Part shown: positions 8,879 to 25,148 of the stretch, one piece after another
How the letters are laid out: each line of letters begins with the position of its first letter
Position numbering within the stretch: the first letter of the stretch is position 1
Assembly: GCF_041248615.1 (NCBI RefSeq)
Contig: NZ_CP158426.1
DNA length: 64,000 nt
Reading direction: 5' to 3' (one strand)
Source: Escherichia coli
Lineage (GTDB): Bacteria > Pseudomonadota > Gammaproteobacteria > Enterobacterales > Enterobacteriaceae
Made by a program: the position numbers and the translations under genes
Notes under the pieces: model-generated
Told to the model about the DNA's origin: nothing
Database searches by the model: none
The model's input: only the letters and a program-made list of their open reading frames with translations

Positions 8879-9694
8879 CTAAAGAGTGTAGCGGATTTTA
8901 ACGTGCTTATTTACAGGATAATATCTGTCACCTAATTCCTGGACTCTATTAGATATCCATTGATTTAATCGCGCATCATCTCTGTATGTTTTTACGTCCA
9001 GAACAGAGAGCAATAACATCACCAGTGATTCAGGAAAAACAGGGTAGATATTTTTTAAGTGTAATAATAATCCATGCGCAAGCGCCTGCTTAATGGGTGC
9101 GTCGGTCTCCGGAATAGACGACATTTCGCGAAGCCATTTTTCCACATGCATACACTCTTTCCCTTTAGGGAAAAGTCTCAGCAAAGGCATATGGTGTTCA
9201 AGAAGAATACATTTGCAATCTGTTCGCACTGAATCGATAAACTGCACTAATTTCTTAAGCCCGGTAAAGCGTCCAGCCTGCACGTTTGCTTTAATATCAA
9301 GAAACGCATCGTCCTGGTCATATACCCAAACTGTCCCTTTTTGATTTTCAAGTATGCGAAAAACAAACTTAACCGGGTGATCAGGGTAATCCATCCAGTC
9401 ATAAAATCCAGGGAAATCATTAAACTGCACATTTATAGTGAGTGCGTTATCGTCTGACCACTCACAGTCTCGTACAGCAGCCATGAGATGAATGAGTTTG
9501 TCGTCATCGACTAAATCATCACGACAATCATAAGGATAATCATAATATTGTTTAATCAAAACCTTGAATATATCGACACAGGAGACCAGGGAGCTTTTGA
9601 TATCCTCTGGTAACTGATTGTTTTTTACTGTATTAAGTATGCTTTGTTGCGTATATGGCATCAAATTATTGTGCGGAGCTTTTAATGATATCAT
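8879..9694 (-). CDS. yahL: hypothetical protein
   Basis: 271-aa ORF in conserved position. Confidence 0.7.
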   Translation of the reverse strand: MISLKAPHNNLMPYTQQSILNTVKNNQLPEDIKSSLVSCVDIFKVLIKQYYDYPYDCRDDLVDDDKLIHLMAAVRDCEWSDDNALTINVQFNDFPGFYDWMDYPDHPVKFVFRILENQKGTVWVYDQDDAFLDIKANVQAGRFTGLKKLVQFIDSVRTDCKCILLEHHMPLLRLFPKGKECMHVEKWLREMSSIPETDAPIKQALAHGLLLHLKNIYPVFPESLVMLLLSVLDVKTYRDDARLNQWISNRVQELGDRYYPVNKHVKIRYTL

Positions 9695-9861
9695 CGCGAT
9701 CTCTCTTAAATAAAAATAAACGTCGCAGATAATAAAGCCCTGATTAAACCAGGCACTATCAGAAATCGCTCATAACTAACGTGTGAAGTATTGTGTACTG
9801 GAGGGAGTTAATTTAACAATTTGAATTTACGTTATAGGTTTTACTGCTACTTTGATATTAT

Positions 9862-9899
9862 TTCGCTCTCCTTAACTAAAAAGTTAAGTGGAGAGCGAA
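9862..9899. terminator. strong hairpin immediately downstream of yahK stop (candidate terminator or RNA stabiliser)
   Basis: TTCGCTCTCCTTAACT-AAAA-AGTTAAGTGGAGAGCGAA: 16 bp stem with 2-nt bulge; no clear U-tract on either strand. Confidence 0.35.
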
Positions 9900-9936
9900 G
9901 TTAATATGTTAAACCACAGGGTATTTATTAATTTTT

Positions 9937-10986
9937 TCAGTCTGTTAGTGTGCGATTATCGATAACAAAACGATATTTCACATCACCACGCAGCATTCGC
10001 TCATAGGCTTCATTAATTTGATCGGCCCGAATCATCTCTATATCAGCCACGATGCCATGTTCGGCGCAAAAATCGAGCATCTCCTGAGTTTCTGGAATGC
10101 CGCCAATCATAGAACCGGCTATCGCACGGCGTTTCATGATCAGGTTGAAAACTTCCGGCGATTTATGCGGTGTCGCAGGCGCACCAACCAGCGTCATGGT
10201 GCCATCACGCTTCAGCAAGGTGGTAAAATCGTCGAGATTATGTGGCGCAGCTACTGTATTCAAAATGAAATCGAAACTCTTGAGATGAGCCGCCATCTCA
10301 TCGGCATTGCGTGAGTTAACAACTTCATCGGCCCCCAGGGCTTTTGCCGCTTCGCGTTTTGACTCAGAAGTGGTAAATGCCACCACATGCGCCCCCATCG
10401 CGTGGGCCAGCTTAATCCCCATATGTCCCAGACCGCCGATGCCGACCACGCCCACTTTTTTACCCGGCCCGGCCTGCCAGTGACGTAGCGGCGAATACGT
10501 GGTGATCCCTGCACACAACAAAGGAGCCACCGCCGCCAGCTGCTCTTGCGGGTGACGAATACGCAGAACATATCGCTCATGAACGACGATCTGTTGTGAG
10601 TAGCCGCCCAGAGTATGGCCCGGTTCGTCCGGCGTCGGCGAGTTATAGGTGCCGGTCATGTGATCACAGTAGTTTTCCAGCCCGTCTTCACACTCTTCGC
10701 AATGTTTACAACTGTCGACAATGCAGCCGACACCGACCAGATCGCCCGGCGCATGTTTTTCTACCTGATCACCAACGGCTACCACACGCCCCACAATTTC
10801 ATGACCCGGCACGCAGGGGTAAACCGTCCCCGCCCACTCGGAACGGACCTGGTGGAGATCGGAATGGCAAACGCCACAGTAAGCGATTTCAATTTTGACA
10901 TCATGCGGTCCCGGTTCACGCCGGGTGATATCCATCGATTCAAGTGGTTGTTTAGCGGAATATGCACCAACAGCTTTGATCTTCAT
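9937..10986 (-). CDS. yahK: Zn-dependent NADPH aldehyde reductase / alcohol dehydrogenase (MDR family)
   Basis: 349-aa ORF; zinc ADH motif GHEIVGRV; Rossmann GVVGIGGLGH. Confidence 0.88.
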   Translation of the reverse strand: MKIKAVGAYSAKQPLESMDITRREPGPHDVKIEIAYCGVCHSDLHQVRSEWAGTVYPCVPGHEIVGRVVAVGDQVEKHAPGDLVGVGCIVDSCKHCEECEDGLENYCDHMTGTYNSPTPDEPGHTLGGYSQQIVVHERYVLRIRHPQEQLAAVAPLLCAGITTYSPLRHWQAGPGKKVGVVGIGGLGHMGIKLAHAMGAHVVAFTTSESKREAAKALGADEVVNSRNADEMAAHLKSFDFILNTVAAPHNLDDFTTLLKRDGTMTLVGAPATPHKSPEVFNLIMKRRAIAGSMIGGIPETQEMLDFCAEHGIVADIEMIRADQINEAYERMLRGDVKYRFVIDNRTLTD

Positions 10987-11072
10987 TGTGTTTACTCCTG
11001 ATTAGCTATGTGTATTTGGCGATGCCTGATATGTCATCGCGGCAAAACGCGTCCATTGAATATAGCCAATAT

Positions 11073-12029
11073 TTAAACCACCCGATCCAGCCCCAACATG
11101 CCGCGAGCCTGAATGAAACAGAGCAGCAACGTTCCCCATAAGGCCATCGTCAGGTAGGGGCTTATACCGAGAATATTGAAGCCGCTTTCAATAATTTGCA
11201 GAAGAAACAGCGCCAGCACCATACCAATTATCCGCCCGCTGCCGCCGTCCGGATTAACCCCGCCGAGTACTGCCGCGAGGATTGACACCAGCAAGTACGA
11301 TTCGCCATAAGAGGCCTTAGCCGAGTTGAGTTTCGACATCATCAAAAATGCCGCTACCGCACAAAGCAAGGCGGAAATGACATACACCCAAATCAGCACC
11401 CGACGAGTGTTAATGCCGGAGTAAAGTGTTGCTCGTTCGTTAGAACCAATCAGATAAATGGATTTACCGAGCGGCGTTTTCTCCAGCAATATCCACAGCC
11501 CTAGCGACACTGCGGTAAACAACCACATCGGTAGCGGAATACCGAACCACTGTGCATGATTCAACCACAGCACCCATGAGGGATAATTGGCAATGGCGCT
11601 ACCGCCTGTCACCAGAATATTTACCCCTTTGAGCAACGTCATCATCCCAAGCGTTGCAAGAATTGGCGACACTCGAATACCAGCAATCAATACGCCGTTA
11701 CATAAACCGATTATCACCGCCGCGCCAGCGCCCGCCAGCAGCGTAGCGACAACCGTAGCAATACCCGGTGGATACTGAGTCGCCACCCACGCCATCACCA
11801 GTGAACAGGCGTTAGCAGTGGCTATAATTGACAAGTTAATGCCACCGCAAAGCATGGTCACCGCCATAGCCAACGCCAGAATGCCCAGCACGGGCATTTG
11901 CGAAGCGACGGACTGGAAATTACTTATCGACCAGAAAATCTCCGGCATAGTAATGCTGAAGGCTGCAACAGTTAGCACCAGCAGGCCGATCAAGTAAAAC
12001 TCAACGTTGTTACGCCACGATTTTTTCAT
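11073..12029 (-). CDS. ABC transporter permease (CUT2 sugar-type)
   Basis: ORF 11073-12059; internal start MKKSWRNN at 12029 forms ATGA overlap with stop of upstream permease; polytopic membrane protein. Confidence 0.8.
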   Translation of the reverse strand: MKKSWRNNVEFYLIGLLVLTVAAFSITMPEIFWSISNFQSVASQMPVLGILALAMAVTMLCGGINLSIIATANACSLVMAWVATQYPPGIATVVATLLAGAGAAVIIGLCNGVLIAGIRVSPILATLGMMTLLKGVNILVTGGSAIANYPSWVLWLNHAQWFGIPLPMWLFTAVSLGLWILLEKTPLGKSIYLIGSNERATLYSGINTRRVLIWVYVISALLCAVAAFLMMSKLNSAKASYGESYLLVSILAAVLGGVNPDGGSGRIIGMVLALFLLQIIESGFNILGISPYLTMALWGTLLLCFIQARGMLGLDRVV

Positions 12030-12997
12030 AGCAGACTCCGGTTCTGATGCTGACTCCACGCCGTGGCACTAATGCTGGCAACGATGATGATGCCGGTGAT
12101 CAATGTTTGCCAGTAAGACGAGACTCCCAATAAATTTAGCCCGTTTTGCATCACTGCCAACAACACCACGCCGAGCAAAGTACCGGTTAACGTGCCGCGC
12201 CCGCCGAGCAAACTAGTGCCGCCAAGCACCACCGCAGCCAGTACTGTCAGCTCATAACCCAGAAGAGAATCGGGGGCGACAGTCATCACCGTCCACGACT
12301 GCACTACACCCGCAGCACCAGACATCAATCCCATATAGCCGTAGACGAAAAGTTGCAGTTTCAGCACGCTAAAGCCGATGCGACTGGCTGATTCGCGGTT
12401 CCCGCCAAGGGCATAAATTTTGCGCCCTACACTGGTGAAATTCATGATAAACGCTGTTAGCAGCACCACCGTAATCATGGCGATCAGCGGCAGACCAAGG
12501 CCATAGTCATAGCCATCAGCATCGGTGTACTTGAACAACATAACCCCCTGCTCAAACCACGGCGGAAAGTCGTACAGCCACACACCTTTACTCAACCATA
12601 ACAGCAGGCCATAGAAAATATTCAGCGTCGAGATAGTGATGATGATAGACGGCACCCGTAGGCGATTAACCAGTAAGGCGTTTATTAAGCCAAGTAAAAT
12701 GCCGATGCCGCCCGCCAGGGCAAACGCGACAGCAAAGTTGCCACCAATTTTTTGCAGCAACAGCACCATGCCGTATTGCGCAATGATGGTCATTGCCGGA
12801 AACGAAATATCAATCCCACCGGAAATTAACACCACAAACAAACCACAGGCGAGAATAGTCAACATGGCATAGTTATTGGCGAGATCGTACAAATTACCGA
12901 ATGTCAGAAACTCGTCGCTGCGCCAGGCAAGGCCAACAAACAGCACCACAATCAGTAATGCCAGCCAGAATTCATGGCGTTTTTTCAGTTCAGCCAT
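12026..12997 (-). CDS. ABC transporter permease (CUT2 sugar-type)
   Basis: 323-aa membrane ORF; start overlaps ATPase stop by 8 nt. Confidence 0.8.
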   Translation of the reverse strand: MAELKKRHEFWLALLIVVLFVGLAWRSDEFLTFGNLYDLANNYAMLTILACGLFVVLISGGIDISFPAMTIIAQYGMVLLLQKIGGNFAVAFALAGGIGILLGLINALLVNRLRVPSIIITISTLNIFYGLLLWLSKGVWLYDFPPWFEQGVMLFKYTDADGYDYGLGLPLIAMITVVLLTAFIMNFTSVGRKIYALGGNRESASRIGFSVLKLQLFVYGYMGLMSGAAGVVQSWTVMTVAPDSLLGYELTVLAAVVLGGTSLLGGRGTLTGTLLGVVLLAVMQNGLNLLGVSSYWQTLITGIIIVASISATAWSQHQNRSLL

Positions 12998-14489
12998 TTA
13001 CCACCTCCGCAATCCTGGCCTGAGAACTGCTGTCAGGCAGGAAGCTATGGGTGATCTGACCTTTTTGCATTACCAAAATCCGGTGGCTTTGATACCACGC
13101 TTCTTCAATTTCATCGCAGATCATCAATACCGCAATGCCATGAGCCGCCAGATCGCTGATAATGCCGTATATTCCTGCTTTGTTGGCGATATCAACACCG
13201 ACAGTCGGGCTATCGAGAATCAACAGTCGTGGCCCAATCGCCAGCCATTTGGCGATCGATACTCGCTGCGCGTTACCCCCGGAAAGCGTATTCACCGGGA
13301 GATGTGGGTCAGAGACTTTGATGGTCAATGCCTTGATTAGCCTGTCCACCAGGTCACGCACTTTAGCTTCACTCAGAAAGCCGAAGCGATCTTTTACCTT
13401 GTGAAAAACAGTGCTAATGATGTTGTCTTCAATAGATTGCGCCATCACCAAACCGCGCGACATGCGATCTTCCGAAACATAACCAATACCGTGGCGGATG
13501 GCGTCCTGGTTACTATGCAGTGTAACCGGCTGACCGTTGATGAGGATCTCACCAGCATCCGGTCGGGTCATACCAAACAGACTCAGACATAATTCCGTGC
13601 GCCCCGCACCAAGCAGGCCAACAATCGACACCACTTCGCCCGCTTCCACCCGCAAGTTAATATTTTGATATTCCCCATGACGACTTAAATTACGCACCTC
13701 CAGCACCGGGGGGCTGGATTTTCCCTGCCACAACTCTCGTACCTGATATTCGAACTCCTGGCCGGTCATCAGAAAACTGAGTTGTTTTGTGGTCATCTCT
13801 GCGGCCGGAAAGGTCCCGACCAGCTCACCATCTTTCAGCACTGAAATACGGTCGGAAACTTCCATCACTTCTTCCAGACGATGACTGACGAAGACCACGC
13901 AGATCCCGCGTTCCCGCAATTGATGCACCACCTGTAATAACCCTTGCACTTCCTGATGGGTCAGCGAAGCGGTTGGTTCATCCATCACGATCAACCGTGC
14001 GTCCTGCGCCAGTGCACGGCAAATTGCCACCAGCTGACAGCGGGCAATTGAAAGCTCAGAAACGAGCGTATCCAGTGGCAATGTGACGTTAATACTGGTC
14101 ATTGCCGCCTGCGCCACCTCACGCAGACGACGGCGGTTAACAAACAGACCGTGGTGATAGTGGTTCACGGCGATATTCTCCCAGACACTCAGGTTAGGAA
14201 ATAAAGAGAGGTCCTGATAAATCACCTGAATCCCCTGCGCCACCGAAGCGGCGGGTGTCAGCTTTGACCAGTTTTTCCCACCAAGCGTAATTTCCGCCCC
14301 CTCATCCGGGCGATAAACACCGGACATAATTTTAATCAACGTCGATTTACCACAGCCGTTTTGCCCGGCAAGGCAGTGCACCTCACCCGACATAAAGTCG
14401 AGAGAAACATCGCGCAGCGCTCGCGTGGCATGAAACGTTTTGTTGATATGACGAAGGGAAAGGAAGGTTTCCATAGCATCCCCTGGCAA
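12990..14489 (-). CDS. ABC transporter ATP-binding protein with two fused ABC domains
   Basis: 499 aa; Walker A GQNGCGKST and second P-loop GLLGAGRTE; signature LSGGNAQRV; alternative start METFLSL at 14474. Confidence 0.85.
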   Translation of the reverse strand: MPGDAMETFLSLRHINKTFHATRALRDVSLDFMSGEVHCLAGQNGCGKSTLIKIMSGVYRPDEGAEITLGGKNWSKLTPAASVAQGIQVIYQDLSLFPNLSVWENIAVNHYHHGLFVNRRRLREVAQAAMTSINVTLPLDTLVSELSIARCQLVAICRALAQDARLIVMDEPTASLTHQEVQGLLQVVHQLRERGICVVFVSHRLEEVMEVSDRISVLKDGELVGTFPAAEMTTKQLSFLMTGQEFEYQVRELWQGKSSPPVLEVRNLSRHGEYQNINLRVEAGEVVSIVGLLGAGRTELCLSLFGMTRPDAGEILINGQPVTLHSNQDAIRHGIGYVSEDRMSRGLVMAQSIEDNIISTVFHKVKDRFGFLSEAKVRDLVDRLIKALTIKVSDPHLPVNTLSGGNAQRVSIAKWLAIGPRLLILDSPTVGVDIANKAGIYGIISDLAAHGIAVLMICDEIEEAWYQSHRILVMQKGQITHSFLPDSSSQARIAEVVNG

Positions 14490-14522
14490 TAAGAATCGGG
14501 GCTTTCGCCCCGAAGAAATGGA

Positions 14523-15509
14523 TTAATAAAGTGAGTCGATATTGTCTTTGTTGACCAGTAATACCTTATGGAAACGGATAATTCGCTTATCCATATCTAC
14601 GTCGGCCTTACCGAGATTCTCCATTTCTAATCCAGGTTTGATCTCTTCACCCTTCAGCAACGTGCTGGCGACGGCCGCGAGTGCGTAACCTGCAGAGGCC
14701 GGATCGTAAGTAATCCCTTCGGTGATATCACCACTTTTAATCAGTGATGCCGCCTGTGAAGGGATCATCATGCCATAGACTGCGACTTTATTTTTCGCCC
14801 GTTTCTCTTTCACTGCACGTCCCGCGCCAATCGGACCGTTTGAACCAAAGGAGACAACCGCTTTCAAGTCAGGATAGGTTTTCATGAGGTCCAGTGTGGT
14901 ACGACGTGAGTCATCCACACTCTCGGCAACCGGCATGCGGCGGGTAACTTCATGCATATCCGGGTAATGCTCTTTCTGGTATTTCACCAGCAAGTCAGCC
15001 CATAAGTTATGCTGCGGCACGGTCAAACTACCCACGTAAATCACATAGCCGCCCTTGCCACCCATGCGTTTCGCCATATGCTCAACATATTCAGCGGCAA
15101 ATTTTTCGTTATCAATGATTTCGATATCCCAGTTAGCACTTGGCTGACCGGGGGATTCGTTGGTCAGAACCACAATTCCGGCATCTCGCGCTTTTTTGAA
15201 TACCGGTTCCAGCACGTTGGCATCGTTTGGCACAATTGTAATTGCATTAACCTTACGGGCGATTAAATCCTCAATAATTTTAACCTGTTGCGGAGCATCA
15301 GTACTTGAAGGCCCCACCTGTGACGCATTAACACCAAAGGCTTTACCCGCCTCAACCACACCTTCGCCCATGCGATTAAACCACGGCATACCATCGACTT
15401 TAGAGATATTCACCACGACTTTTTCCGCTGCCTGGAGCGGCGCAGAAATTAGCGCAGCGCCTAATAACAGCGAAGACACCATATTGATAACAAAACGTTT
15501 ATTCATCAT
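14523..15509 (-). CDS. periplasmic solute-binding protein, LsrB-like
   Basis: 328 aa with signal peptide (ending LQA-AEK); resembles recalled LsrB along its length including C-terminal KDNID motif. Confidence 0.75.
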   Translation of the reverse strand: MMNKRFVINMVSSLLLGAALISAPLQAAEKVVVNISKVDGMPWFNRMGEGVVEAGKAFGVNASQVGPSSTDAPQQVKIIEDLIARKVNAITIVPNDANVLEPVFKKARDAGIVVLTNESPGQPSANWDIEIIDNEKFAAEYVEHMAKRMGGKGGYVIYVGSLTVPQHNLWADLLVKYQKEHYPDMHEVTRRMPVAESVDDSRRTTLDLMKTYPDLKAVVSFGSNGPIGAGRAVKEKRAKNKVAVYGMMIPSQAASLIKSGDITEGITYDPASAGYALAAVASTLLKGEEIKPGLEMENLGKADVDMDKRIIRFHKVLLVNKDNIDSLY

Positions 15510-15759
15510 TTCAGCCTCATTGCAGGGTAGTCAGGAAGTGTTCGCCCAAATTAGCGCGCTGGAGAGAATAAGAATTTTCGAATATTTTTATGCAGAATAA
15601 ACAGCCCTATTTCAGGCAGCTATTAAAAATTTGGTTATAAATATGGACAAAACGGGCAGTAACAATAAGTGTGACAATCATCACGTAAAAAATAGCAAAA
15701 TAAACAAAATTAGCGATACTTTATGTTTGTGAGCTTATTTCGCGTAGAAAAATAGTTAT

Positions 15760-16170
15760 CTACACAACGTCAATAAGGGCATATTCTTCAAAGATAACGT
15801 CCATTTCGGGTGAATAGCATCCTTCTGCCTGGAAAAAACGACGGTGTTCATTACGCCAATATTCAAGACTGAGGTCACCTTCACCTTCCTTACGGGCAAG
15901 CTCCGCGGTGACATCAGAAAAGCGCAGTAAATGCAGGCCAATCACTCTGATAACACAGACAGGCTCACCACGGCTATTTTCTACAATCTTATACTCACCA
16001 ATCAGCGGAAATGCGTTGTCTTCAATACATCCCGCCAGCGAACCACAGGAAGCTGTTTTAACACCAGTCGCAATCAACGTTGCGAGGTGATCGGCCAACG
16101 CTGCTGAATCGCCAAAAGTACAAAAGGAAGCATGGGGATATTTTTGTGAGATTTTTTCTTTTATGGTCAT
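15760..16170 (-). CDS. ASCH-domain (PUA-like) protein
   Basis: ORF 15760-16200; likely start MTIKEK at 16170; GxKT motif (ATGVKTAS) typical of ASCH domains. Confidence 0.55.
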   Translation of the reverse strand: MTIKEKISQKYPHASFCTFGDSAALADHLATLIATGVKTASCGSLAGCIEDNAFPLIGEYKIVENSRGEPVCVIRVIGLHLLRFSDVTAELARKEGEGDLSLEYWRNEHRRFFQAEGCYSPEMDVIFEEYALIDVV

Positions 16171-16468
16171 GAGAATATTTTCGCGATTACGGAAAAACAA
16201 ATCACATCTTAATTACTGTTGATAACCATCAGCAAGAGTATCATTGGTTTTTCGATACTGAATCTTTTTTATCCGAAGCAGGTCACATTTATGGCCTGAT
16301 AAATACCTTTGTTAAAACTCACTTTTGTGTATTTCTCTCAAATAATCCCCTGGAAATTATGCCGGGAGATTATAAAGTTCAGGATCATTCATTAACAAAC
16401 CATTCCCGCCCCACTCCCTGGGGCTTAAATCTCTTACGATTCACCGTTGCAGACATATCAAATGCGCA

Positions 16469-17851
16469 TCAACCTGCCACACTCCCCCACACCAGTTGCC
16501 CTTTATGGAACGTCGCCGTTCTCGGCGAGATACGCGCCACCGCCTCGGCGGAACAGGAGGCGTCCACCAGCACAAAGCTGGCGTCATCCTGCGCTTTGGG
16601 CCAGACGCGCTCGCCTTTTTCGTTGAGCGGCAATACATCGCCAGTGGCTAAAAACAGCGAACGGGACAAATTCTGTTCGTTAGGACGAATATAGAGCTGC
16701 GCGTAGAGATTGGCTTTTTCCAGCATGTCGCCCAGGCCGTAAGGCGACCAGTGGTCGATAACGCTGTCGGTGCCGGTCATCACTTTTACGCCTTTGTCGT
16801 GCAGTTGTTTAAGCGGCATATGTAGCGTGCCAATCGGCACCGTCGAGGCGATAGAAATTTGCTGCGCCGCCATCCGGTGCGCCAGTTCATCTACCTGTTG
16901 CTCATTGAGCGTTGCCAGCGCAAAGGCGTGGCTGATGGTCAGCTTGCCCTTCAGTTGCGGCGTTTTCTCCACCGTTTCAACCATATAATTGATGGCTGCC
17001 ACGCCTGCCGGAGTGGTTTCGTGCAGGTGAATATCAACGCCTTTGTCGTAGTCCAGCGCAATCTGGAACATGGTGTCGAGGGATTTTTCCATCGCGCCAT
17101 CAACACTGGTCGGGTCCAGCCCGCCGACGTAATGCGCCCCCGCCTGCATCGCTTCGCGCATTAAGGGTTCTGATTTCGACAGCAGCAAACCGTGCTGCGG
17201 GAAGGCGACAATTTCACACTCGAAGCCCGCCTGACGTCGCGCCAGAACCGCCTGCAAATTTTGCAGATTTTTCAGGCCGGAAACCGGTTCGATATTGCAG
17301 TGGCTGCGGGCAATGGTGGTGCCTTTCGATTGCAATAAATCGATCAGTTTTTCCGCCCGCTCCTGAGTATACGGTTGCAGTTCCGGCAGCATTTTCTGCT
17401 CAAGCTTAATCATGTCCTGGATGGTGGTGCCTGCCGGACGATTGAGCGAGCGCCACGGCCCGCCGTAAAAGGTTTTGTCGAGATGAATATGCATGTCGCG
17501 GGTAGTGGGCAGCATCAGCTTACCGCCAGCGTCATAGTGCGGCAGCGTGGCGTCCGGATGCTGCTTGTTCTCGCGCAGGGCAACAATTTTGCCGTTCTGA
17601 ATCTCTACGGTCTGGTGCGCCGTGCGGGTCTGTACTGCCACACCGTTTTCGTAGTCAAAACCGGTTTCCAGCAGCACGTTGTCGAGATAGTAGTGCGGGT
17701 CAGTGATTTTCATGGTGTTATTCGCGTCGCAATGGATTGTGCCAGAGACTGCCGCATGGGCGAGCGGCACAGAGGTACCAAACAGCGCGGCGGCGGTGAC
17801 CATCTTACCGCTCTGGCTCAGAAACTCACGGCGGCTATTGTTTTCTTTCAT
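16469..17851 (-). CDS. yahJ: metal-dependent amidohydrolase/deaminase with twin-arginine signal peptide
   Basis: 460 aa; N-terminus MKENNSRREFLSQSG...AHA (Tat motif SRREFL); amidohydrolase-superfamily HxH-type sequence. Confidence 0.85.
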   Translation of the reverse strand: MKENNSRREFLSQSGKMVTAAALFGTSVPLAHAAVSGTIHCDANNTMKITDPHYYLDNVLLETGFDYENGVAVQTRTAHQTVEIQNGKIVALRENKQHPDATLPHYDAGGKLMLPTTRDMHIHLDKTFYGGPWRSLNRPAGTTIQDMIKLEQKMLPELQPYTQERAEKLIDLLQSKGTTIARSHCNIEPVSGLKNLQNLQAVLARRQAGFECEIVAFPQHGLLLSKSEPLMREAMQAGAHYVGGLDPTSVDGAMEKSLDTMFQIALDYDKGVDIHLHETTPAGVAAINYMVETVEKTPQLKGKLTISHAFALATLNEQQVDELAHRMAAQQISIASTVPIGTLHMPLKQLHDKGVKVMTGTDSVIDHWSPYGLGDMLEKANLYAQLYIRPNEQNLSRSLFLATGDVLPLNEKGERVWPKAQDDASFVLVDASCSAEAVARISPRTATFHKGQLVWGSVAG

Positions 17852-17860
17852 CTTACGTCC

Positions 17861-18811
17861 TTACGTTTTAATAATATGGGTGCCCGTTTCACCACGCAGC
17901 GCCGCAGGCAGGCATTCCGGCGTGGTGATAATCACTTCTTTACCGCCCTGCTCCAGGAACGTCAGGCTGGCGATGATTTTTGGCAACATGCTGCCGGGTG
18001 GGAAATGCCCTTCCTGCATATAGCGGGTCATGGTGGCAATATCCACCCGATCCAGCGCCTGCTGCTGCGGCTTGCCAAAGTGAATACACACTTTTTCCAC
18101 GCCCGTGGTGATCACCAGAATGTCGGCGTGAATTTCGCGAGCCAGTAGCGCGGTAGAGAGATCTTTGTCGATAACCGCGTCCACGCTTTGGTAATCCCCC
18201 GCTTCAGTACGCACTACCGGAATTCCACCGCCGCCCGCGCCAATCACCACAAAGCCTTGCTGGATCAGCGCCTTAATGGCAGGTGCTTCGACAATACGTT
18301 TCGGTTCCGGCGAGGCGACCACGCGGCGATAGCCCCGTCCGGCATCTTCAACAAAACGCCAGTCAGGATTTGCCTTTTGTAATTCGTCACGCTGGCTGTC
18401 ACTAAAGAATGCGCCGATGGGCTTGGTGGGATGAGCAAATCCCGGATCGTTTTTATCCACTTCCACCTGAGTCACCACGGTGACGGCTTTTTTCTCGCCG
18501 TGACGCGCCAGCCGGTTGTTCAGCGCCTGCTGGATCAGATAGCCAATGCCGCCTTGCGTATCCGCCACACAGTTCGCCAGCGGCGTTAAGGGCAGCCCTT
18601 CGCGCTCGTGGGCAATCTCCGCGCGGCGTAAATCCAGCCCGACCTGCGGCCCGTTGCCGTGGGTCAGCACAATGTCGTAATCGGAAGCCAGCATTTCCAG
18701 CACCGTATCGGCGACGGCCTTCACCGCCTCCGCCTGATGCTCAATCGACTGGCTGGCGTTATCTTTGATAATGCTGTTGCCACCAATGGCAACGACCACA
18801 AGCTCTTTCAT
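17861..18811 (-). CDS. yahI: carbamate kinase-like protein
   Basis: ORF 17861-18985; conserved start MKELVVVAIGGNS at 18811 gives 316 aa; amino-acid kinase fold motifs. Confidence 0.85.
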   Translation of the reverse strand: MKELVVVAIGGNSIIKDNASQSIEHQAEAVKAVADTVLEMLASDYDIVLTHGNGPQVGLDLRRAEIAHEREGLPLTPLANCVADTQGGIGYLIQQALNNRLARHGEKKAVTVVTQVEVDKNDPGFAHPTKPIGAFFSDSQRDELQKANPDWRFVEDAGRGYRRVVASPEPKRIVEAPAIKALIQQGFVVIGAGGGGIPVVRTEAGDYQSVDAVIDKDLSTALLAREIHADILVITTGVEKVCIHFGKPQQQALDRVDIATMTRYMQEGHFPPGSMLPKIIASLTFLEQGGKEVIITTPECLPAALRGETGTHIIKT

Positions 18812-18905
18812 GTTGTTATGTCCGCTACAGAGGGTGATGGGGTTATGAGAGTGAGGTTGCCCCTCTCCCCAGAAGGGAGAAGGGATCGTAAGGTGCGTTT
18901 GCAGG

Positions 18906-20324
18906 TCAGACGCCGTAACGTTCGCACCAGCCGAGAATGGCTTTCTCGAAGCAGGCGAATGGTGGATGCACAATGCCCGCACCAATCATGCCGACGCCCG
19001 CATCTTTATGGGCGATGGCGGTGTTGATCACCGGCAGAATGCCGCTGCTGCCCACGCGGGTGATGTCGATTGCCGACGGCACGCCCATAAAACCGAGCAG
19101 CGGAATGGTGACGTTGGGGTTTTCACCGAGAGTGATTTCACGCATCTGGCGGGAGAAATCGATAGCCTCTTCCACCGTACCGCCCACCAGCGCGACGATC
19201 GCGGGCGCGGTCGCCATGGCAAATCCGCCAATGCCGTAGGTTTCAGTGATGGCGCTGTCGCCGATATCCAGCCCCGAATCTTCCGGCTTATAACCGGCAA
19301 ACATCGGCCCGATCACCTGCTGCGCCGGACCGGTAAACCATTGCCCCGGTAATCCGCTGACCCGCAGGCCGAACTCGACGCCGTTACGCGCCATGGTGGT
19401 GACCACGGTGCTGTATTCGATGCCGTGCGCCGCATCCATCGCCGCTTTACACATCGCCATCCACGTCGGGCCGGAGAAGTAGTCGCTGCTGGCGACAAAC
19501 TCAAACACTTCGCGCTGTTGCTCGACGGAATAACCCGCCTGAATAATCCCCTGCGTCAGCGCCTGAATCAGCAACGTCGTCCCGGCGTTATTGCGGTTAT
19601 GGCATTCATCGCCCATATGCAGCGCCTGCGCCAGCATTAAGCGCAGATCGATTTCGCCGATAATTTTCATCGCGTCGCGCAGCATTGGCCCCTGCACATC
19701 GCGCATCCAGTTGAGGCGGTCAATCACGCTCTGGTCGTTAGCGCCCATACGCAAAATCTTCGCCATCTGCTCGCTCATATTGGTGTAAGCGATGTTGCCG
19801 TAGGTTTTGTTTTTTACGATGTGCATAAACATCGAGGCCGAGGTAACACCCGCCATCGAACCCACGCAGTCGTGCTCGTGGCACGGCGAGAAGGTGATCT
19901 CCCCGGAGGCCGCCAGTTCAGCCGCCTCATCGAGATCTTTCGCCAGCCCTTCGAACACCAGCGCTCCGGTGACCGCGCCTTTCATCGCGCCACACATTTT
20001 TTCCCAGGTGATCGGCGGTCCGGCGTGAAGAATGGTTTTCGGCGTCATACCCGGCACCACGTTAATCGCCTGATCAAAACCAATCAGCACCGGATGCGAC
20101 TGGATAATGCGCTCCAAAGCCTGCTGGTTAGCGGCGGCGATTTTGTCTGCCAGCGGCGAATCGGCAATGTTATCCAGCGCCTGCACCACCTGCATATTGC
20201 CCTGCCCCGGCGGCGTCCAGTCGAGTTGAGTCACTTCTACATGCTGCTTTTTCAGGTCATCGCTAAACATGGCGATGCCGACGTTAATAACGTTCAATGG
20301 TTGGCTAAACAGTGACTGGCTCAT
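18906..20324 (-). CDS. yahG: DUF1116 protein (YlbE paralog)
   Basis: 472-aa ORF; start shares one nt with yahF stop. Confidence 0.8.
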   Translation of the reverse strand: MSQSLFSQPLNVINVGIAMFSDDLKKQHVEVTQLDWTPPGQGNMQVVQALDNIADSPLADKIAAANQQALERIIQSHPVLIGFDQAINVVPGMTPKTILHAGPPITWEKMCGAMKGAVTGALVFEGLAKDLDEAAELAASGEITFSPCHEHDCVGSMAGVTSASMFMHIVKNKTYGNIAYTNMSEQMAKILRMGANDQSVIDRLNWMRDVQGPMLRDAMKIIGEIDLRLMLAQALHMGDECHNRNNAGTTLLIQALTQGIIQAGYSVEQQREVFEFVASSDYFSGPTWMAMCKAAMDAAHGIEYSTVVTTMARNGVEFGLRVSGLPGQWFTGPAQQVIGPMFAGYKPEDSGLDIGDSAITETYGIGGFAMATAPAIVALVGGTVEEAIDFSRQMREITLGENPNVTIPLLGFMGVPSAIDITRVGSSGILPVINTAIAHKDAGVGMIGAGIVHPPFACFEKAILGWCERYGV

Positions 20325-21871
20325 CAGGCTTCCTCCCCTTTGCAGATAAATTCACGCGCCAGCAATCCGGTATTGGTGCTGCTGCTGGCCAGAATCACTC
20401 CGGCATCAAGCAACATCTGGCTTTGTTGTTCTAACGATGGCGTATCAAGATCGGTACCCAGCACATAGGCGAGAATGATCAACTCACGTCCTTCGGCAGC
20501 GGCGATCGCTTTCGCCTCTTTGATCGCCTCGATGGTGGAACCGACCGGATCTTCATGCGATCCAAACCCGAGCACAAAATCCATCACGATCACCGCCACT
20601 TCTGGATCGCGCGCCTCTTCGATCAAGCGGCTGATACGGTTGGTGGGGTCAATCATTGGATGCGGCTTGCCGTTGGTGAAGTCGTCATCGCCAAAGTCGA
20701 GGAAGGTGTGTTTGATGCTGCGGTTGATATCTTGCAGGCGGAATTCAGGATCGGGCTGAATGTTGCTGTAGACATCGCCATGTTTTTCCATCACCGCGAA
20801 CATGGTTTCGTCACACAGCGTGCCGCCGCAGAACAGGCCACGAATGTATTTCTGCTGCGGTTGCAGACGCGCACGCACATCCGCAATCAACGGCTGGTTC
20901 AGGGTATGCAAGTCGAGATGTTCTTGTTTCACACCGGAGAGCATCACCGCTTTTAGTGCCGCCTCTTTGGTGCCGCGAGCAAACTGTAGCCCCTGCTCAT
21001 CCACTGGCGTTTCGCCACGACCGAGGAAGCAGACCACCACTGGCTTACGGCAGGCGCGTGCGCGTTCCAGCACTTTGCGGGCCACCGCAGGCGCTGGCGG
21101 TTTGGAGATAAGCACAATGATTTCAGTTTGCGGATCGTTTTCCAGCATCCCGATAGCGTCGAGCATCATCAGGCCGCCGATTTTCTCGCTCAGGTCGCGC
21201 CCGCCGGTGCCAATCAGTTGCGAAACGCCGCCGCCAAATTCATGAATGCGGACGCTCAGTTCCTGGCTACCGGTGCCGGATGCGCCAACAATACCGATGT
21301 TGCCACGACGCACGGCGTTACCAAAGCAGAGCGCCGCGCCGTTGATAATCGCCGTACCGCAGTCTGGCCCCATCATCAGCAGCCCTTTTTCGTGGGCCAA
21401 CTGTTTGAGCGCCAGTTCATCTTCAACTGAGACGTTATCGGAAAACAGCATCACGTTAAGATCGTTTTGCAGCGCCTGACGCGCTTCGCGAGCGGCAAAC
21501 AGACCGTTGACCGAAATCACCGCCAGGTTACTTTCCGGGATATGCTTTTTGGCGCTGGCAATAGTGGCATAGCGTGCTTCATGTGAACCAGTTTGAGCTT
21601 TGGTGTTGAACAGTTCTTCAATCTCCACCAGCAACTGCTCGTTGTCTGCGCCCGCTTTGCCGTTGATGACAATCATCAGGTCGCCGTTTTTCGCCTGCTC
21701 CAGTTCCGGCGTCAGCAGCCCTAAATTCTTCAGCACGCCTTTGTTCATTTCGGTCGCCATCGCCACAAATGCCTGCTCGACGCCGTCGAGTTTATTTGCA
21801 CGCGTGGAGATAGACATCAGCGAGACAGAATCAAAATAGGTATTCGGTTTAATGACTATTTTAACTGACAT
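20324..21871 (-). CDS. yahF: FdrA-like protein (succinyl-CoA synthetase alpha / CoA-binding fold)
   Basis: 515-aa ORF; glycine-rich CoA-binding-like segments; overlaps yahE by 11 nt. Confidence 0.8.
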   Translation of the reverse strand: MSVKIVIKPNTYFDSVSLMSISTRANKLDGVEQAFVAMATEMNKGVLKNLGLLTPELEQAKNGDLMIVINGKAGADNEQLLVEIEELFNTKAQTGSHEARYATIASAKKHIPESNLAVISVNGLFAAREARQALQNDLNVMLFSDNVSVEDELALKQLAHEKGLLMMGPDCGTAIINGAALCFGNAVRRGNIGIVGASGTGSQELSVRIHEFGGGVSQLIGTGGRDLSEKIGGLMMLDAIGMLENDPQTEIIVLISKPPAPAVARKVLERARACRKPVVVCFLGRGETPVDEQGLQFARGTKEAALKAVMLSGVKQEHLDLHTLNQPLIADVRARLQPQQKYIRGLFCGGTLCDETMFAVMEKHGDVYSNIQPDPEFRLQDINRSIKHTFLDFGDDDFTNGKPHPMIDPTNRISRLIEEARDPEVAVIVMDFVLGFGSHEDPVGSTIEAIKEAKAIAAAEGRELIILAYVLGTDLDTPSLEQQSQMLLDAGVILASSSTNTGLLAREFICKGEEA

Positions 21872-22724
21872 AATTCCCTCCGTAGGTTTGGCTCAGCGCA
21901 CAACCATCGGCCATGCCATACAGCATGTCGCAGCCGGAACTGGAGCCAATATGTTTAATTTTTTCTATTGCCTGAGTTGCGTTCCCAGGGACACCATAAA
22001 TAATGTTATGAATAAAACGATGAATATTTTCCCGGCAGCGTTGTTGTAATGCGGCTTCCAGCGTTATGGCACTTAATAACGTGGTATTATTTCTGCCGCG
22101 TTGCAGACCGAGATAAAATTCCTCTTTGTATTTTTCCGCCGGATGTCCGGAAATAAATAAAATAAGCGCCAGACCTGTTAAATAATCGTCGGCTGATGGC
22201 GTAAGGCCAATCCCTAAGCCCATCATACTGGCGACTGCTGAGGCGATATTTTGTTTATCGTTTACGGCCTGAATAACTGCCCGTCGTTTAATATGTAATT
22301 CTTTATTTAACGCCTGATAAAACGGATTATCGCCGCAATAATTAAACAGGGTTTCATTTTCCCCCAGGTGCTGATGAATAATGTCATGCCACTGTTGCCA
22401 GGCGATAAGGTGAAAATTCACAGCGGTCATTTGCAAGGTTGGGGACAGCCAACGCCGACAACGACTCATCTCTATATGAAGATGTTGACCAACCGTAATG
22501 CCTTGATCGTCAAACTGAACCTTATCACCATGCCGGAACAGACCATCAAAGTGAGTGAGTGCCAACCGACAACTGTTTGGCGCATTGTCGTACTCTTCAC
22601 AAAGCAGCGTCAGCAACTGCTGGCGGGCCGGAAGTGCGATATTTACCGCTCTGGCAAAGACCTGTTCAACCTGTCCTTGCCCCCGCTGCGCCAGAAAATC
22701 AGCATCCGCAGTTAGCGCCCACAC
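21861..22724 (-). CDS. yahE: DUF2877 protein (YlbF paralog)
   Basis: 287-aa ORF upstream of and overlapping yahF. Confidence 0.75.
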   Translation of the reverse strand: MWALTADADFLAQRGQGQVEQVFARAVNIALPARQQLLTLLCEEYDNAPNSCRLALTHFDGLFRHGDKVQFDDQGITVGQHLHIEMSRCRRWLSPTLQMTAVNFHLIAWQQWHDIIHQHLGENETLFNYCGDNPFYQALNKELHIKRRAVIQAVNDKQNIASAVASMMGLGIGLTPSADDYLTGLALILFISGHPAEKYKEEFYLGLQRGRNNTTLLSAITLEAALQQRCRENIHRFIHNIIYGVPGNATQAIEKIKHIGSSSGCDMLYGMADGCALSQTYGGNYVS

Positions 22725-22763
22725 ACACCGTCTTTCTGGTGTGTTGATAGCAAGCCTCCCGGT

Positions 22764-23369
22764 TTATGCACCTGCGGCAATCAGTAACTGTGCAATCTCT
22801 TCAAAGCCTCGTTCCCGCGCCAGTTCCAGCGGCGTTTTGCCATATTTATCCGTCATGTGCGGGCTGGCACCGTGTTCCAGCAATAACTGGACAATCGCCT
22901 GCTGTTTAATCCCGCCATCATTAAGCACAATTGCTTCCAGTAGCGGCGTCCAGCCAACATGGTTGGTCTGGTTAACGTTAATCTCCGTATGCGCCAAAAG
23001 CTCTTTTACAATACTTAAATGGCCTTTTTCACAGGCAGGCGTCAGGCCGACACCGCCAAAACGGGTGACGCAATTAAGATCGGGTTTAGCCGGTAAAATA
23101 ATCCGTAACAGGGTTAAATCGCCGGTCAGGCAGCTAATTAAAAAAGGATTTGAACATATTTGATCTTGCTTATTAATATCTGCTCCGGCATCAATTAATG
23201 CCTGAACGCAAGCATATTGCTGATATAAACTTGCCAGCGTAATTGCCGTTTTCCCCTGACGATCGCAGGTATTAATATCGACACCCAGCGCAAGGCATGT
23301 TTTTACTTTATCGATATCACCCTGTTGCGCAGCCAATAAATAGTCGGCAGGTAGATTTTTTATAGTCAT
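22764..23369 (-). CDS. yahD: ankyrin-repeat protein
   Basis: 201 aa; repeated motifs of the type GKTAITLASLYQQYACVQALIDAGADIN. Confidence 0.8.
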   Translation of the reverse strand: MTIKNLPADYLLAAQQGDIDKVKTCLALGVDINTCDRQGKTAITLASLYQQYACVQALIDAGADINKQDQICSNPFLISCLTGDLTLLRIILPAKPDLNCVTRFGGVGLTPACEKGHLSIVKELLAHTEINVNQTNHVGWTPLLEAIVLNDGGIKQQAIVQLLLEHGASPHMTDKYGKTPLELARERGFEEIAQLLIAAGA

Positions 23370-23626
23370 TCACATTCCCCTGATTTTTGTGGCTGTTTTC
23401 GATGAATTGAGAATAGCAACGATAATCTGATAAAAGAACCCGCTTAAATTTAATTCGCCGTATTTCGCCTTTTTGTTGAATGATGTTCAACAATCTTTTC
23501 GCAGTGTGCGGTAGTGCAATATTTGTTTCTTTGACCCGATACCCTTTCACTCAATCAGGTTTTATTTCTCTATAGTCTGCACATGTAAGAGTAGCTTTCG
23601 TCCATGTCTAACCAGAGGGGAACAAG

Positions 23627-24124
23627 ATGAACGGACTCACGGCAACGGGTGTCACCGTCGGTATTTGTGCAGGGCTTTGGCAGTTAGTGTCTTCACATGT
23701 CGGGCTCTCTCAGGGATGGGAATTATTAGGAACTATTGGCTTCGTCGCCTTTTGCAGTTTTTATGCCGCAGGCGGCGGTAAATCGGGGTTTATCAGAAGC
23801 CTGGCGGTTAATTATTCCGGGATGGTGTGGGCGTTTTTCGCCGCGCTGGCTGCCGGTTGGCTGGCCTCGGTGAGTGGATTGTCCACGTTCTGGGCGAGCG
23901 TGATTATGACTGTACCCTTCTCGGCGGTGGTGGTCTGGCAAGGACGTTTCGGTTTACTGTCTTTTATTCCCGGAGGCTTTCTCGGCATGACGCTATTTTT
24001 TGCCAGCGGGATGAACTGGACGGTGACATTACTGGGTTTTCTGGCGGGTAACTGCGTGGGGATAATTTCAGAATATGGCGGACAAAAATTAAGCGAAGCG
24101 ACGACTAAACGCGACGGGTATTAA
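23627..24124 (+). CDS. yahC: small inner-membrane protein
   Basis: 165-aa hydrophobic ORF. Confidence 0.7.
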   Translation: MNGLTATGVTVGICAGLWQLVSSHVGLSQGWELLGTIGFVAFCSFYAAGGGKSGFIRSLAVNYSGMVWAFFAALAAGWLASVSGLSTFWASVIMTVPFSAVVVWQGRFGLLSFIPGGFLGMTLFFASGMNWTVTLLGFLAGNCVGIISEYGGQKLSEATTKRDGY

Positions 24125-24215
24125 AAGTTATTCAAAAATGATTATCTATCTTTAACCGATACCTCTACAGTCATAGCTGGAGAAATTCATAGTAGATAAT
24201 GGCGGGAATGGTTTA

Positions 24216-25148
24216 ATGAACTCAATTTTTACCGAAGAGAATCTGTTGGCATTTACTACCGCTGCGCGTTTTGGCAGTTTCAGTAAAGCCGCAGAAGAGT
24301 TGGGTTTAACCACTTCCGCCATTAGCTACACCATCAAGCGAATGGAAACAGGGCTGGATGTGGTGCTGTTCACTCGCAGTACCCGCAGCATTGAGTTAAC
24401 GGAGTCCGGGCGTTATTTTTTCCGCAAAGCTACCGACCTGCTGAATGATTTTCACGCCATCAAACGCAGCATCGATACTATTTCGCAGGGTATAGAAGCA
24501 CGGGTGCGCATTTGTATTAACCAACTGCTTTATACGCCCAAACACACCGCACGCTTATTACAGGTACTGAAAAAGCAGTTTCCAACCTGCCAGATTACCG
24601 TGACGACCGAAGTGTATAACGGCGTCTGGGATGCGATTATTAATAATCAGGCGAATATTGCTATCGGCGCGCCCGACACACTGCTGGACGGCGGCGGCAT
24701 TGATTACACGGAGATTGGCGCAATTCGCTGGGCTTTTGCTATCGCCCCGGATCACCCATTAGCCTTTGTGCCGGAACCCATCGCCGAAAGCCAACTGCGT
24801 CTCTATCCTAATATCATGGTGGAGGACACCGCGCATACGATTAATAAAAAAGTGGGCTGGTTGCTGCATGGGCAGGAGTCGATTCTGGTGCCAGATTTCA
24901 ACACCAAATGTCAGTGCCAGATTTTAGGTGAAGGGATTGGTTTTTTGCCGGATTACATGGTCCGTGAGGCGATGGCGCAATCCCTGCTGGTTACCCGACA
25001 AATCCATAATCCGCGCCAGGATTCACGCATGTTACTCGCAACTCAGCATTCTGCTACGGGTCAGGTGACGCAGTGGATTAAAAAACAATTTTCGCCAAAT
25101 GGCATATTAACGGGGATCTATCAGGATTTACTGCATCGGGAGAATTAA
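24216..25148 (+). CDS. yahB: LysR-family transcriptional regulator
   Basis: 310 aa; N-terminal HTH (FSKAAEELGLTTSAISYTIKRME). Confidence 0.85.
   Translation: MNSIFTEENLLAFTTAARFGSFSKAAEELGLTTSAISYTIKRMETGLDVVLFTRSTRSIELTESGRYFFRKATDLLNDFHAIKRSIDTISQGIEARVRICINQLLYTPKHTARLLQVLKKQFPTCQITVTTEVYNGVWDAIINNQANIAIGAPDTLLDGGGIDYTEIGAIRWAFAIAPDHPLAFVPEPIAESQLRLYPNIMVEDTAHTINKKVGWLLHGQESILVPDFNTKCQCQILGEGIGFLPDYMVREAMAQSLLVTRQIHNPRQDSRMLLATQHSATGQVTQWIKKQFSPNGILTGIYQDLLHREN

Follow-up and report, generated by a model that had tools for sequence, protein, structure and literature searches.

The five-gene block between yahK and yahJ of Escherichia coli: the Aau importer, its P_BAD-like candidate promoter and a separate ASCH-domain gene

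In the 64,000-nucleotide stretch of Escherichia coli DNA analysed here (the window), yahK and yahJ enclose four transporter genes that are already known: they encode the published Aau sugar importer of this species. The best explanation of the whole is that positions 11073-15509 (minus strand) form the aau operon, encoding a CUT2-family importer, that the ASCH-domain gene beside it is separate and that the block is probably ancestral; we place the probability of this reading at roughly 0.93. Aau (for 'accessory L-arabinose uptake'), a CUT2-family ABC importer encoded on O-island 17 (OI-17), matters as a gut fitness factor of EHEC, and publications already cover its ligand and structure, its regulator and its phenotype in vivo. 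The present analysis adds that a candidate P_BAD-like promoter sequence, kept across genera, would account for its control by arabinose, and that the yahJ-yahK junction of K-12 is the scar of a deletion, which makes it probable that strains with the block show the older state. The naming, promoter and scar results open no long-standing question.

The ORF list of the window holds five co-directional reading frames between yahK and yahJ, all on the minus strand and in the orientation of both flanking genes (Table 1; gene starts are those of RefSeq/PGAP, from a 100% identical record). This arrangement had been reported in a preliminary description of the locus, which also correctly held yahJ and yahK to be adjacent in K-12: in MG1655 they are neighbours and the block is absent. 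The ATPase stop and the start of the first permease gene overlap by 8 bases (ATGGCTGA), and the two permease genes overlap at ATGA, the stop/start arrangement remarked on earlier; translation of ATPase and permeases would be coupled through these overlapping codons. The hairpin between aauA and the ATPase gene may serve as an intra-operon attenuator or as an mRNA stabiliser favouring surplus binding protein. No Rfam family of structured RNA was found within 9000-18000.

Table 1. Features of the aau block and its surroundings, in positions of the window
Feature	Position	Strand	Basis or remark
yahK	9937-10986		flank of block
Second Aau permease, 318 aa	11073..12029	-	RbsC/LsrD-like (NCBIfam)
First Aau permease, 323 aa	12026..12997	-	AraH/RbsC-like (NCBIfam)
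Tandem-NBD ATPase of Aau, 494 aa, intact	12990..14474	-	PGAP coordinates
G+C-rich hairpin TCGGGGCGAAAGCCCCGA between aauA and ATPase gene	14496..14513	-	terminator-like scan
aauA, periplasmic D-ribulose-binding protein, 328 aa	14523..15509	-	ATG at 15509 follows the published numbering; PGAP start 15506
Candidate -10 hexamer TATTCT, 21 nt downstream of I2	15594..15599	-	inferred
Candidate AraC I1-I2 direct repeat TGCCCGTTTTGTCCATA-ttta-TAACCAAATTTTTAATA	15621..15658	-	
Candidate CRP site CGTGA-tgattg-TCACA, directly upstream of I1	15670..15685	-	
Stand-alone ASCH-domain gene, 136 aa, YhfF/COG4405-like	15760..16170	-	outside aau operon
Sigma-70-like promoter TTGTTA-18-TATAAT, 10/12, upstream of ASCH gene	16369..16398	-	consensus match alone
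yahJ	16469-17851		flank of block
K-12 deletion 1: aauABCD and promoter	11145..15737	.	junction alignment
K-12 deletion 2: most of the ASCH gene plus the region before it	15808..16407	.	junction alignment

The identity of the importer follows from its binding protein (Peripla_BP_4 in Pfam, E = 5.6e-63). The protein searches proposed in the preliminary description matched it to PDB 9I1M with two substitutions in 328 residues (326/328 identical, 711.9 bits, E = 1e-213); this entry is the crystal structure of AauA from EHEC O-island 17 in complex with D-ribulose (PMC12307932). Crystallography and ITC established alpha-D-ribulose as the ligand of the EHEC protein, with a KD of 1.98 µM for D-ribulose and an approximately 300-fold weaker one of 598 µM for L-arabinose (PMC12307932). 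All six residues that contact D-ribulose (K37, W43, E118, H167, E196 and S223) are kept in the AauA of the window and are invariant across 75 orthologues. Binding and transport of D-ribulose by the window's allele would carry over from the EHEC locus, with which it is 98-99% identical. Among NCBIfam models RhaS scored highest, but its 136.9 bits fall far short of the cut-off, 342, and a rhamnose, ribose or allose binder was rejected because every equivalog score lay far under its cut-off. According to published work, Aau takes D-ribulose and, weakly, L-arabinose, is induced through AraC and depends on AraB for phosphorylation (PMC11127945, PMC12307932); once imported, D-ribulose is phosphorylated by the L-ribulokinase AraB and enters the pentose phosphate pathway. 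The earlier expectation of an LsrB-like importer serving a ligand other than AI-2 is borne out in part: the system is a CUT2-family importer, distantly LsrB-like, with D-ribulose as the published ligand. Its ligand and regulation had, however, already been characterised (PMC11127945, PMC12307932), a circumstance that the preliminary description itself had named as refuting its reading.

The likeness to the AI-2 receptor LsrB, on which the preliminary description had built its 'Lsr-type' label, is real at the level of the family and no closer. AauA is 28% identical to E. coli LsrB and shares its C-terminal NK[DE]NI, but its NCBIfam LsrB score (111 bits, cut-off 384) lies below that for RhaS. 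Alignment of the LsrB residues that contact AI-2 (K35, D116, D166, Q167, P220 and A222), also proposed there, found only K35 kept (K37 in AauA); the other five are replaced (D116E, D166Q, Q167H, P220F and A222S). The Pereira criteria, as summarised in PMC3386761, require that identity to S. Typhimurium LsrB exceed 63%, and the 28% to the E. coli protein falls short of this. With the K-12 lsr operon used for comparison, none of lsrK, lsrR, lsrF or lsrG was found within the yahN-yahG neighbourhood, as had been noted before. An AI-2 receptor is ruled out by the low identity, the single retained contact and the absent lsr genes. In a search of 5426 complete E. coli genomes, all full-length matches listed bear the RefSeq product name 'autoinducer 2 ABC transporter substrate-binding protein', which is misleading for AauA.

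A reporter carrying ~300 bp upstream of the EHEC gene is AraC-dependent and induced exclusively by L-arabinose (PMC11127945), and the aauA promoter of the window is 96% identical to the EHEC promoter. We located a candidate AraC site and a candidate CRP site there. The I1 half-site departs from TAGC-N7-TCCATA at two positions, and matches to a single half-site are not enriched across the window (41 found versus 45 expected from shuffles); a lone half-site match was accordingly rejected as evidence for an AraC site. It is the composite motif and its conservation across genera, not the match itself, that make these sites credible candidates. Of 57 Aau-type loci, 36 have the arrangement of CRP site, I1-I2 and -10 upstream of the binding-protein gene; all 21 Rbl-type loci lack it. 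In Klebsiella and Franconibacter the candidate -10 is conserved, as TTTATTCT / TTTACTCT, and the position of the candidate CRP site is taken by TGTGA-N6-TCACA-like sequences there as well as in Yersinia and Pasteurellaceae. Moreover, araC adjoins the orthologue in 26 loci (NCBIfam 491 bits, cut-off 208), and araBAD or araFGH does so in several. In the spacer between the ASCH gene and aauA, a P_BAD-like promoter built of CRP site, I1-I2 and a weak -10 would start transcription. Others have shown that aau is transcribed solely while AraC senses L-arabinose.

This regulation raises the question of whether L-arabinose, after which the system was named in 2024, or another pentose or pentulose of the arabinose pathway is the physiological substrate, with D-ribulose binding incidental. 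Induction solely by L-arabinose through AraC (PMC11127945) speaks for such a substrate, as do orthologues inside ara clusters (araC with araBAD in Providencia, araC with an FGGY kinase in Pasteurellaceae) and the partial restoration of growth on arabinose when Aau is overexpressed in an araE mutant (PMC12307932). We nevertheless regard it as improbable. The difference in affinity stands against it, and so do the Budviciaceae loci, where araFGH and an Aau orthologue are immediate neighbours, an arrangement that points to non-redundant substrates; Rbl-type relatives, with the same six contacts, use D-ribulose for growth via a dedicated kinase.

The history of the block can be read at the K-12 junction, which aligns to positions 10987-11144, 15738-15807 and 16408-16468 of the window. 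Two gene remnants survive in K-12, the final 72 bp of the second (last) permease gene and a 48 bp piece of the ASCH gene, and they mark the yahJ-yahK junction as a deletion scar. The 63 and 24 bp that fill the junction showed no homology to the block or the window beyond that of shuffled controls. A divergent Escherichia (locus L032; genome ~90% identical) carries aau beside yahK at the same site, with 91-93% identity to the window in the aau genes and 86-89% in the flanks. Together, scar and shared site suggest that the block is probably ancestral to Escherichia, not a recent insertion, and that K-12-like strains lost it by deletion. The aau genes have a G+C content of 0.48-0.54, typical of E. 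coli, so composition gives no clear sign of a foreign origin for aau, and the ASCH region alone is lower (about 0.40-0.43). Comparison of the junction across E. coli, another check suggested earlier, found the full block in 2210 of the 5426 complete genomes, with the ASCH gene in 2212 and the transporter in 2210, indicating that they are gained or lost together. The fuller proposal, that OI-17, described as horizontally acquired, is ancestral to Escherichia and was lost from K-12-like lineages (phylogroups A and B2) by two deletions that left gene fragments, and that the Aau-type D-ribulose binding-protein family is an old member of the arabinose regulon, directly AraC/CRP-controlled, in Enterobacterales and Pasteurellaceae, seems to us slightly favoured. 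If OI-17 is ancestral and AraC control old, there was no 'hijacking' of AraC by EHEC upon gaining the locus.

The ASCH domain had been correctly recognized in the preliminary description (Pfam PF04266, E = 1.3e-21, model positions 5-102 of 103), which went on to make its protein a partner of the transporter. The protein is of the YhfF/COG4405 type, aligning over nearly its full length, EGEGD-SL-W motif included, with PDB 1t62 and 3s9x (1e-19 and 1e-17); a 2026 ASCH preprint makes no mention of 1T62, 3S9X or YhfF. It differs from the N4-acetylcytidine amidohydrolase YqfB of E. coli, with which BLASTP gave no alignment at E <= 100, a weak test, and a YqfB-type N4-acylcytosine amidohydrolase was rejected on this basis.

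Could the ASCH gene be the first of a five-gene operon, acting on the imported sugar or its conjugate? It is co-directional with the transporter genes and lost with them in E. coli, and a terminator-like scan of the 250 bp spacer before aauA found no terminator, so read-through co-transcription may occur. However, the gene sits upstream of the candidate aauA promoter, the fully AraC-dependent 300 bp reporter fragment lies downstream of it, it has a sigma-70-like promoter of its own by consensus match, and its region is lower in G+C than the aau genes (about 0.40-0.43 versus 0.50-0.53). Furthermore, L032 retains aau with most of the ASCH gene lost, and no ASCH gene adjoins an Aau orthologue outside Escherichia among 80 loci examined. 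These results make a five-gene operon very unlikely. The four ASCH homologue contexts were unrelated, with no common neighbour, and with no linked copy outside Escherichia a transporter partner was rejected. We consider the ASCH gene a separate, probably monocistronic unit that in E. coli has only the insertion/deletion history of the block in common with aau; a smaller possibility is that this co-deleted YhfF-type protein has an undiscovered role at the locus. Two unlinked matches were recorded during the search, an ASCH gene ~10 kb from the transporter on the opposite strand (L083) and a weak YahK-like match of 27% identity (L061).

Finally, that an Lsr-type importer carries some other small ligand, such as a carbamoylated or acylated sugar or nucleoside, as substrate of the yah enzymes and/or the ASCH protein is largely refuted: the transporter genes do lie between yahK and yahJ in one direction with both, the ASCH gene shares their fate (2212 versus 2210 genomes) and PGAP labels the binding protein for AI-2, but the ligand is D-ribulose by crystallography and ITC (PMC12307932), the regulator is AraC and not a yah-linked one (PMC11127945), five of six AI-2 contacts are gone, ASCH homologues occur elsewhere, and yahJ, yahK or ASCH adjoins the transporter in none of 79 loci outside E. 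coli apart from yahK in L032, the one linked match in our search of 80 orthologous loci for these neighbours. Nothing ties the transporter to the yah enzymes, a link that the preliminary description had raised as possible.

The aau locus of the window is the same locus, with the same flanks and gene order, as Aau of EHEC O157:H7 (Z0415-Z0419, O-island 17; Cottam et al., Nat Commun 2024 and 2025), and an O157:H7 genome has identical gene order between yahK and yahJ at 98-99% DNA identity. Differences are allelic only. O157 strains of the EDL933/TUV93-0 type carry TAG at codon 87 of the ATPase gene (PMC11127945), whereas the window has no stop there and its ATPase is intact, as in strain ZAP193. 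LsrACDB of E. coli and Salmonella shares with Aau the CUT2 ABC architecture and the type-I periplasmic-binding-protein fold family, but its binding-protein gene comes last where that of aau comes first, and its regulator is LsrR, not AraC. Rbl, the D-ribulose utilisation locus of Citrobacter rodentium (ROD_24811-61), has a homologous four-gene transporter of ~60% identity, and in the ~60%-identical clade all six ligand-contact residues are identical to those of AauA. What sets Rbl-type loci apart is a downstream FGGY pentulose kinase with a KpsF-like isomerase, and the lack of the AraC/CRP motif; Aau has no dedicated kinase and depends on AraC and AraB. With AraFGH and P_BAD, Aau shares AraC as regulator and what appears to be the same layout of CRP site, I1, I2 and weak -10. 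AraG is the best-scoring NCBIfam model for its ATPase (425.9 bits, ahead of YtfR at 415.6 and XylG at 413.6, each under its cut-off). AraF belongs to another binding-protein lineage and binds L-arabinose tightly, whereas AauA prefers D-ribulose.

The minus strand between yahK and yahJ carries five co-directional genes in the six-frame ORF list, encoding an ASCH-domain protein (Pfam, E = 1.3e-21), a substrate-binding protein (Peripla_BP_4, E = 5.6e-63), an ATP-binding protein and two permeases. The stop of the first permease gene overlaps the start of the second within an ATGA sequence, and the ATPase gene stop overlaps the first permease gene start by 8 bases. Given that the ORFs, domains, ATGA overlap and the adjacency of yahK and yahJ in MG1655 (K-12) are all as stated in the preliminary description, its account of the layout is accurate.

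Features of the aau region (window coordinates unless stated otherwise)
Feature	Coordinates	Strand	Basis or remark
yahK	9937-10986		flank
Second permease gene	11073-12029	minus	curated start, 100% identical RefSeq record NZ_LT599825
First permease gene	12026-12997	minus	curated start, NZ_LT599825
ATP-binding protein gene	12990-14474	minus	curated start, NZ_LT599825
Substrate-binding protein gene (aauA)	14523-15506	minus	curated start, NZ_LT599825
Candidate TATTCT	15599-15594	coding strand of aau	21 nt downstream of I2-like site
AraC I2-like candidate TAACCAAATTTTTAATA	15637-15621	coding strand of aau	4 bp spacer after I1
AraC I1-like candidate TGCCCGTTTTGTCCATA	15658-15642	coding strand of aau	sequence
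CRP-like candidate CGTGA-tgattg-TCACA	15685-15670	coding strand of aau	sequence
ASCH-domain protein gene	15760-16170	minus	curated start, NZ_LT599825
yahJ	16469-17851		flank
MG1655 junction piece 1	10987-11144		includes last 72 bp of second permease gene
MG1655 junction piece 2	15738-15807		includes last 48 bp of ASCH gene
MG1655 junction piece 3	16408-16468
Pasteurellaceae FGGY kinase gene	about 14300-15950 in locus L042

A PDB sequence search with the binding protein returned 9I1M_A (711.9 bits, two substitutions in 328 residues). This chain is AauA from enterohaemorrhagic E. coli, in a crystal structure with bound alpha-D-ribulose (Cottam et al., Nat Commun 2025, PMC12307932). AauA binds D-ribulose with a KD of 1.98 µM and L-arabinose with a KD of 598 µM, and its ligand contacts are K37, W43, E118, H167, E196 and S223; uptake of D-ribulose requires the presence of L-arabinose, and the imported sugar is phosphorylated by AraB (PMC12307932). 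All six contacts are present in the window protein and are kept in 75/75 orthologous binding proteins. The locus was defined as Z0415-Z0419 on O-island 17 (Nat Commun 2024, PMC11127945); a reporter of ~300 bp upstream of Z0415 was induced by L-arabinose only and was dead in an araC mutant, and a locus deletion mutant had a competitive defect in mice (PMC11127945). The window transporter is therefore the already published Aau, whose ligand, regulator and in vivo role were established for the enterohaemorrhagic locus (PMC11127945, PMC12307932). The expectation of a ligand other than AI-2 holds, D-ribulose being that ligand by the published structure and KD; the proposed tie to a substrate of the yah enzymes is unsupported.

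The gene order yahK-permease-permease-ATPase-binding protein-ASCH-yahJ is also found in an O157:H7 genome, at 98-99% DNA identity across the block. In O157:H7 strain Z1825 (L091 3791-5275), codon 87 of the ATPase gene, at the Q-loop glutamine, is TAG and the gene is flagged as a pseudogene, unlike the intact window gene. This is the same SNP as that reported at ATPase-gene nucleotide 259 in TUV93-0 (PMC11127945). A 4.7 kb contig of a 'Bacteroidales bacterium' MAG (L004, SFEK01000152.1) encodes proteins 99-100% identical to those of the E. coli aau genes, and almost certainly reflects contamination by E. coli or mis-binning.

The resemblance to LsrB stands at the family level only. AauA and E. 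coli LsrB share 28% identity and a C-terminal NK[DE]NI motif; among the AI-2 contacts of LsrB (K35, D116, D166, Q167, P220 and A222) AauA keeps K35 only, the other five being E, Q, H, F and S. Conversely, LsrB has KFDQNA at the six D-ribulose contact positions. AI-2 receptors are recognized by >63% identity, all six residues and a full lsr gene set, whereas proteins that show <36% identity and carry substitutions at D166 and A222 do not count as AI-2 receptors (Pereira et al., summarised in PMC3386761); AauA falls in the latter group, and we rejected it as an AI-2 receptor. The NCBIfam scores, RhaS at 136.9 bits and LsrB at 111.1 bits, are both far below their cut-offs. Every full-length match listed in the E. 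coli genome search bears the RefSeq/PGAP name 'autoinducer 2 ABC transporter substrate-binding protein'. Given the low identity, the single retained contact and the sub-cut-off scores, this name is a family-level misnomer.

The ASCH protein had been regarded as a partner of the transporter, a role disfavoured by five observations: its gene has a predicted sigma-70-like promoter of its own, lies in a region of lower G+C content, is upstream of the fragment sufficient for AraC-dependent expression, and has no homologue adjoining Aau or Rbl orthologues outside Escherichia (tblastn, 80 loci fetched); in addition, homologues of 50-65% identity ('YhfF') from Yersinia, Pseudenterobacter, Kosakonia and Erwinia occupy four unrelated contexts. 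Two uncharacterised structures, 1t62 and 3s9x, align with the protein; in a weak test, BLASTP gave no alignment with YqfB. The aau block occurs in 2210 of 5426 complete E. coli genomes and the ASCH gene in 2212, the two being present or absent together, which reflects shared deletion history, not shared function. As no terminator was found between the ASCH gene and aauA, read-through from one into the other is possible.

The MG1655 yahK-yahJ junction (L001 3174-3463) matches the window in three separate pieces and also contains fillers of 63 bp and 24 bp, for which no homology in the block was detected. PGAP annotates its 72 bp permease remnant as an N-terminally truncated pseudogene, and the 70 bp ASCH remnant recurs in about 2800 further E. 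coli genomes. Because permease and ASCH coding fragments persist there, this 'empty' site is a two-deletion scar and not a virgin site, K-12 having lost the block by deletion. A divergent Escherichia (L032, labelled E. coli SCPM-O-B-8794; ~90% DNA identity) also has aau next to yahK. Identity to the window is 91-93% in the aau genes and 86-89% in the flanks, which fits vertical inheritance of aau. Comparison of L032 (1-10000) with window 15859-25090 found the stretch from mid-ASCH gene to ~25090 missing, including yahJ, yahI, yahG and further genes. The K-12 scar and the L032 identities make the published label 'horizontally acquired' questionable, a refinement rather than a discovery.

The yahJ and yahI genes (16469-18811) are only 94.7-95.4% identical to O157:H7 (L091), against 98-99% for yahK, aau and the ASCH gene; this contrast hints at a breakpoint of recombination close to the ASCH/yahJ boundary. 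YahJ, a cytosine-deaminase-like amidohydrolase, begins with a twin-arginine-type signal (MKENNSRREFLSQSG...AHAA) and is therefore probably exported. A G+C-rich hairpin without a strong T-run, TCGGGGCGAAAGCCCCGA (14496-14513, minus strand), lies between the binding-protein and ATPase genes, where it may serve as an intra-operon attenuator or RNA-stability element.

The 250 bp ASCH-aauA spacer contains CRP-like, I1-like, I2-like and TATTCT candidates in an order that we take to be the P_BAD arrangement. The I1 match alone is not significant. In 80 orthologous loci, fetched from species-representative genomes, we searched the region upstream of the binding-protein gene for the in-register composite motif T[CT]CAT[AG]-N4-TA[AG]C. 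It occurs in 36/57 Aau-type loci (~64-99% identity), usually preceded by TGTGA-N6-TCACA, and in 0/21 Rbl-type loci (~57-60% identity). Pasteurellaceae Aau-type operons (L042, L047, L049, L051-L053, L055, L057-L061 and L080) comprise araC and then the four transporter genes; downstream of them comes a 534 aa FGGY kinase, followed in L080 by araA. The kinase has no NCBIfam name (XylB, 99.6 bits against a cut-off of 380) and could be a non-orthologous ribulokinase. By gene-neighbour clustering, araC adjoins 26 Aau-type loci (NCBIfam AraC 491 bits, cut-off 208), araBAD adjoins those of Providencia, and araFGH with araB those of Budviciaceae. Direct AraC/CRP control thus probably dates far back in the Aau clade; Rbl-type loci, related to the D-ribulose utilisation locus of Citrobacter rodentium, instead have an FGGY pentulose kinase and a KpsF-like isomerase in place of the ara neighbours.
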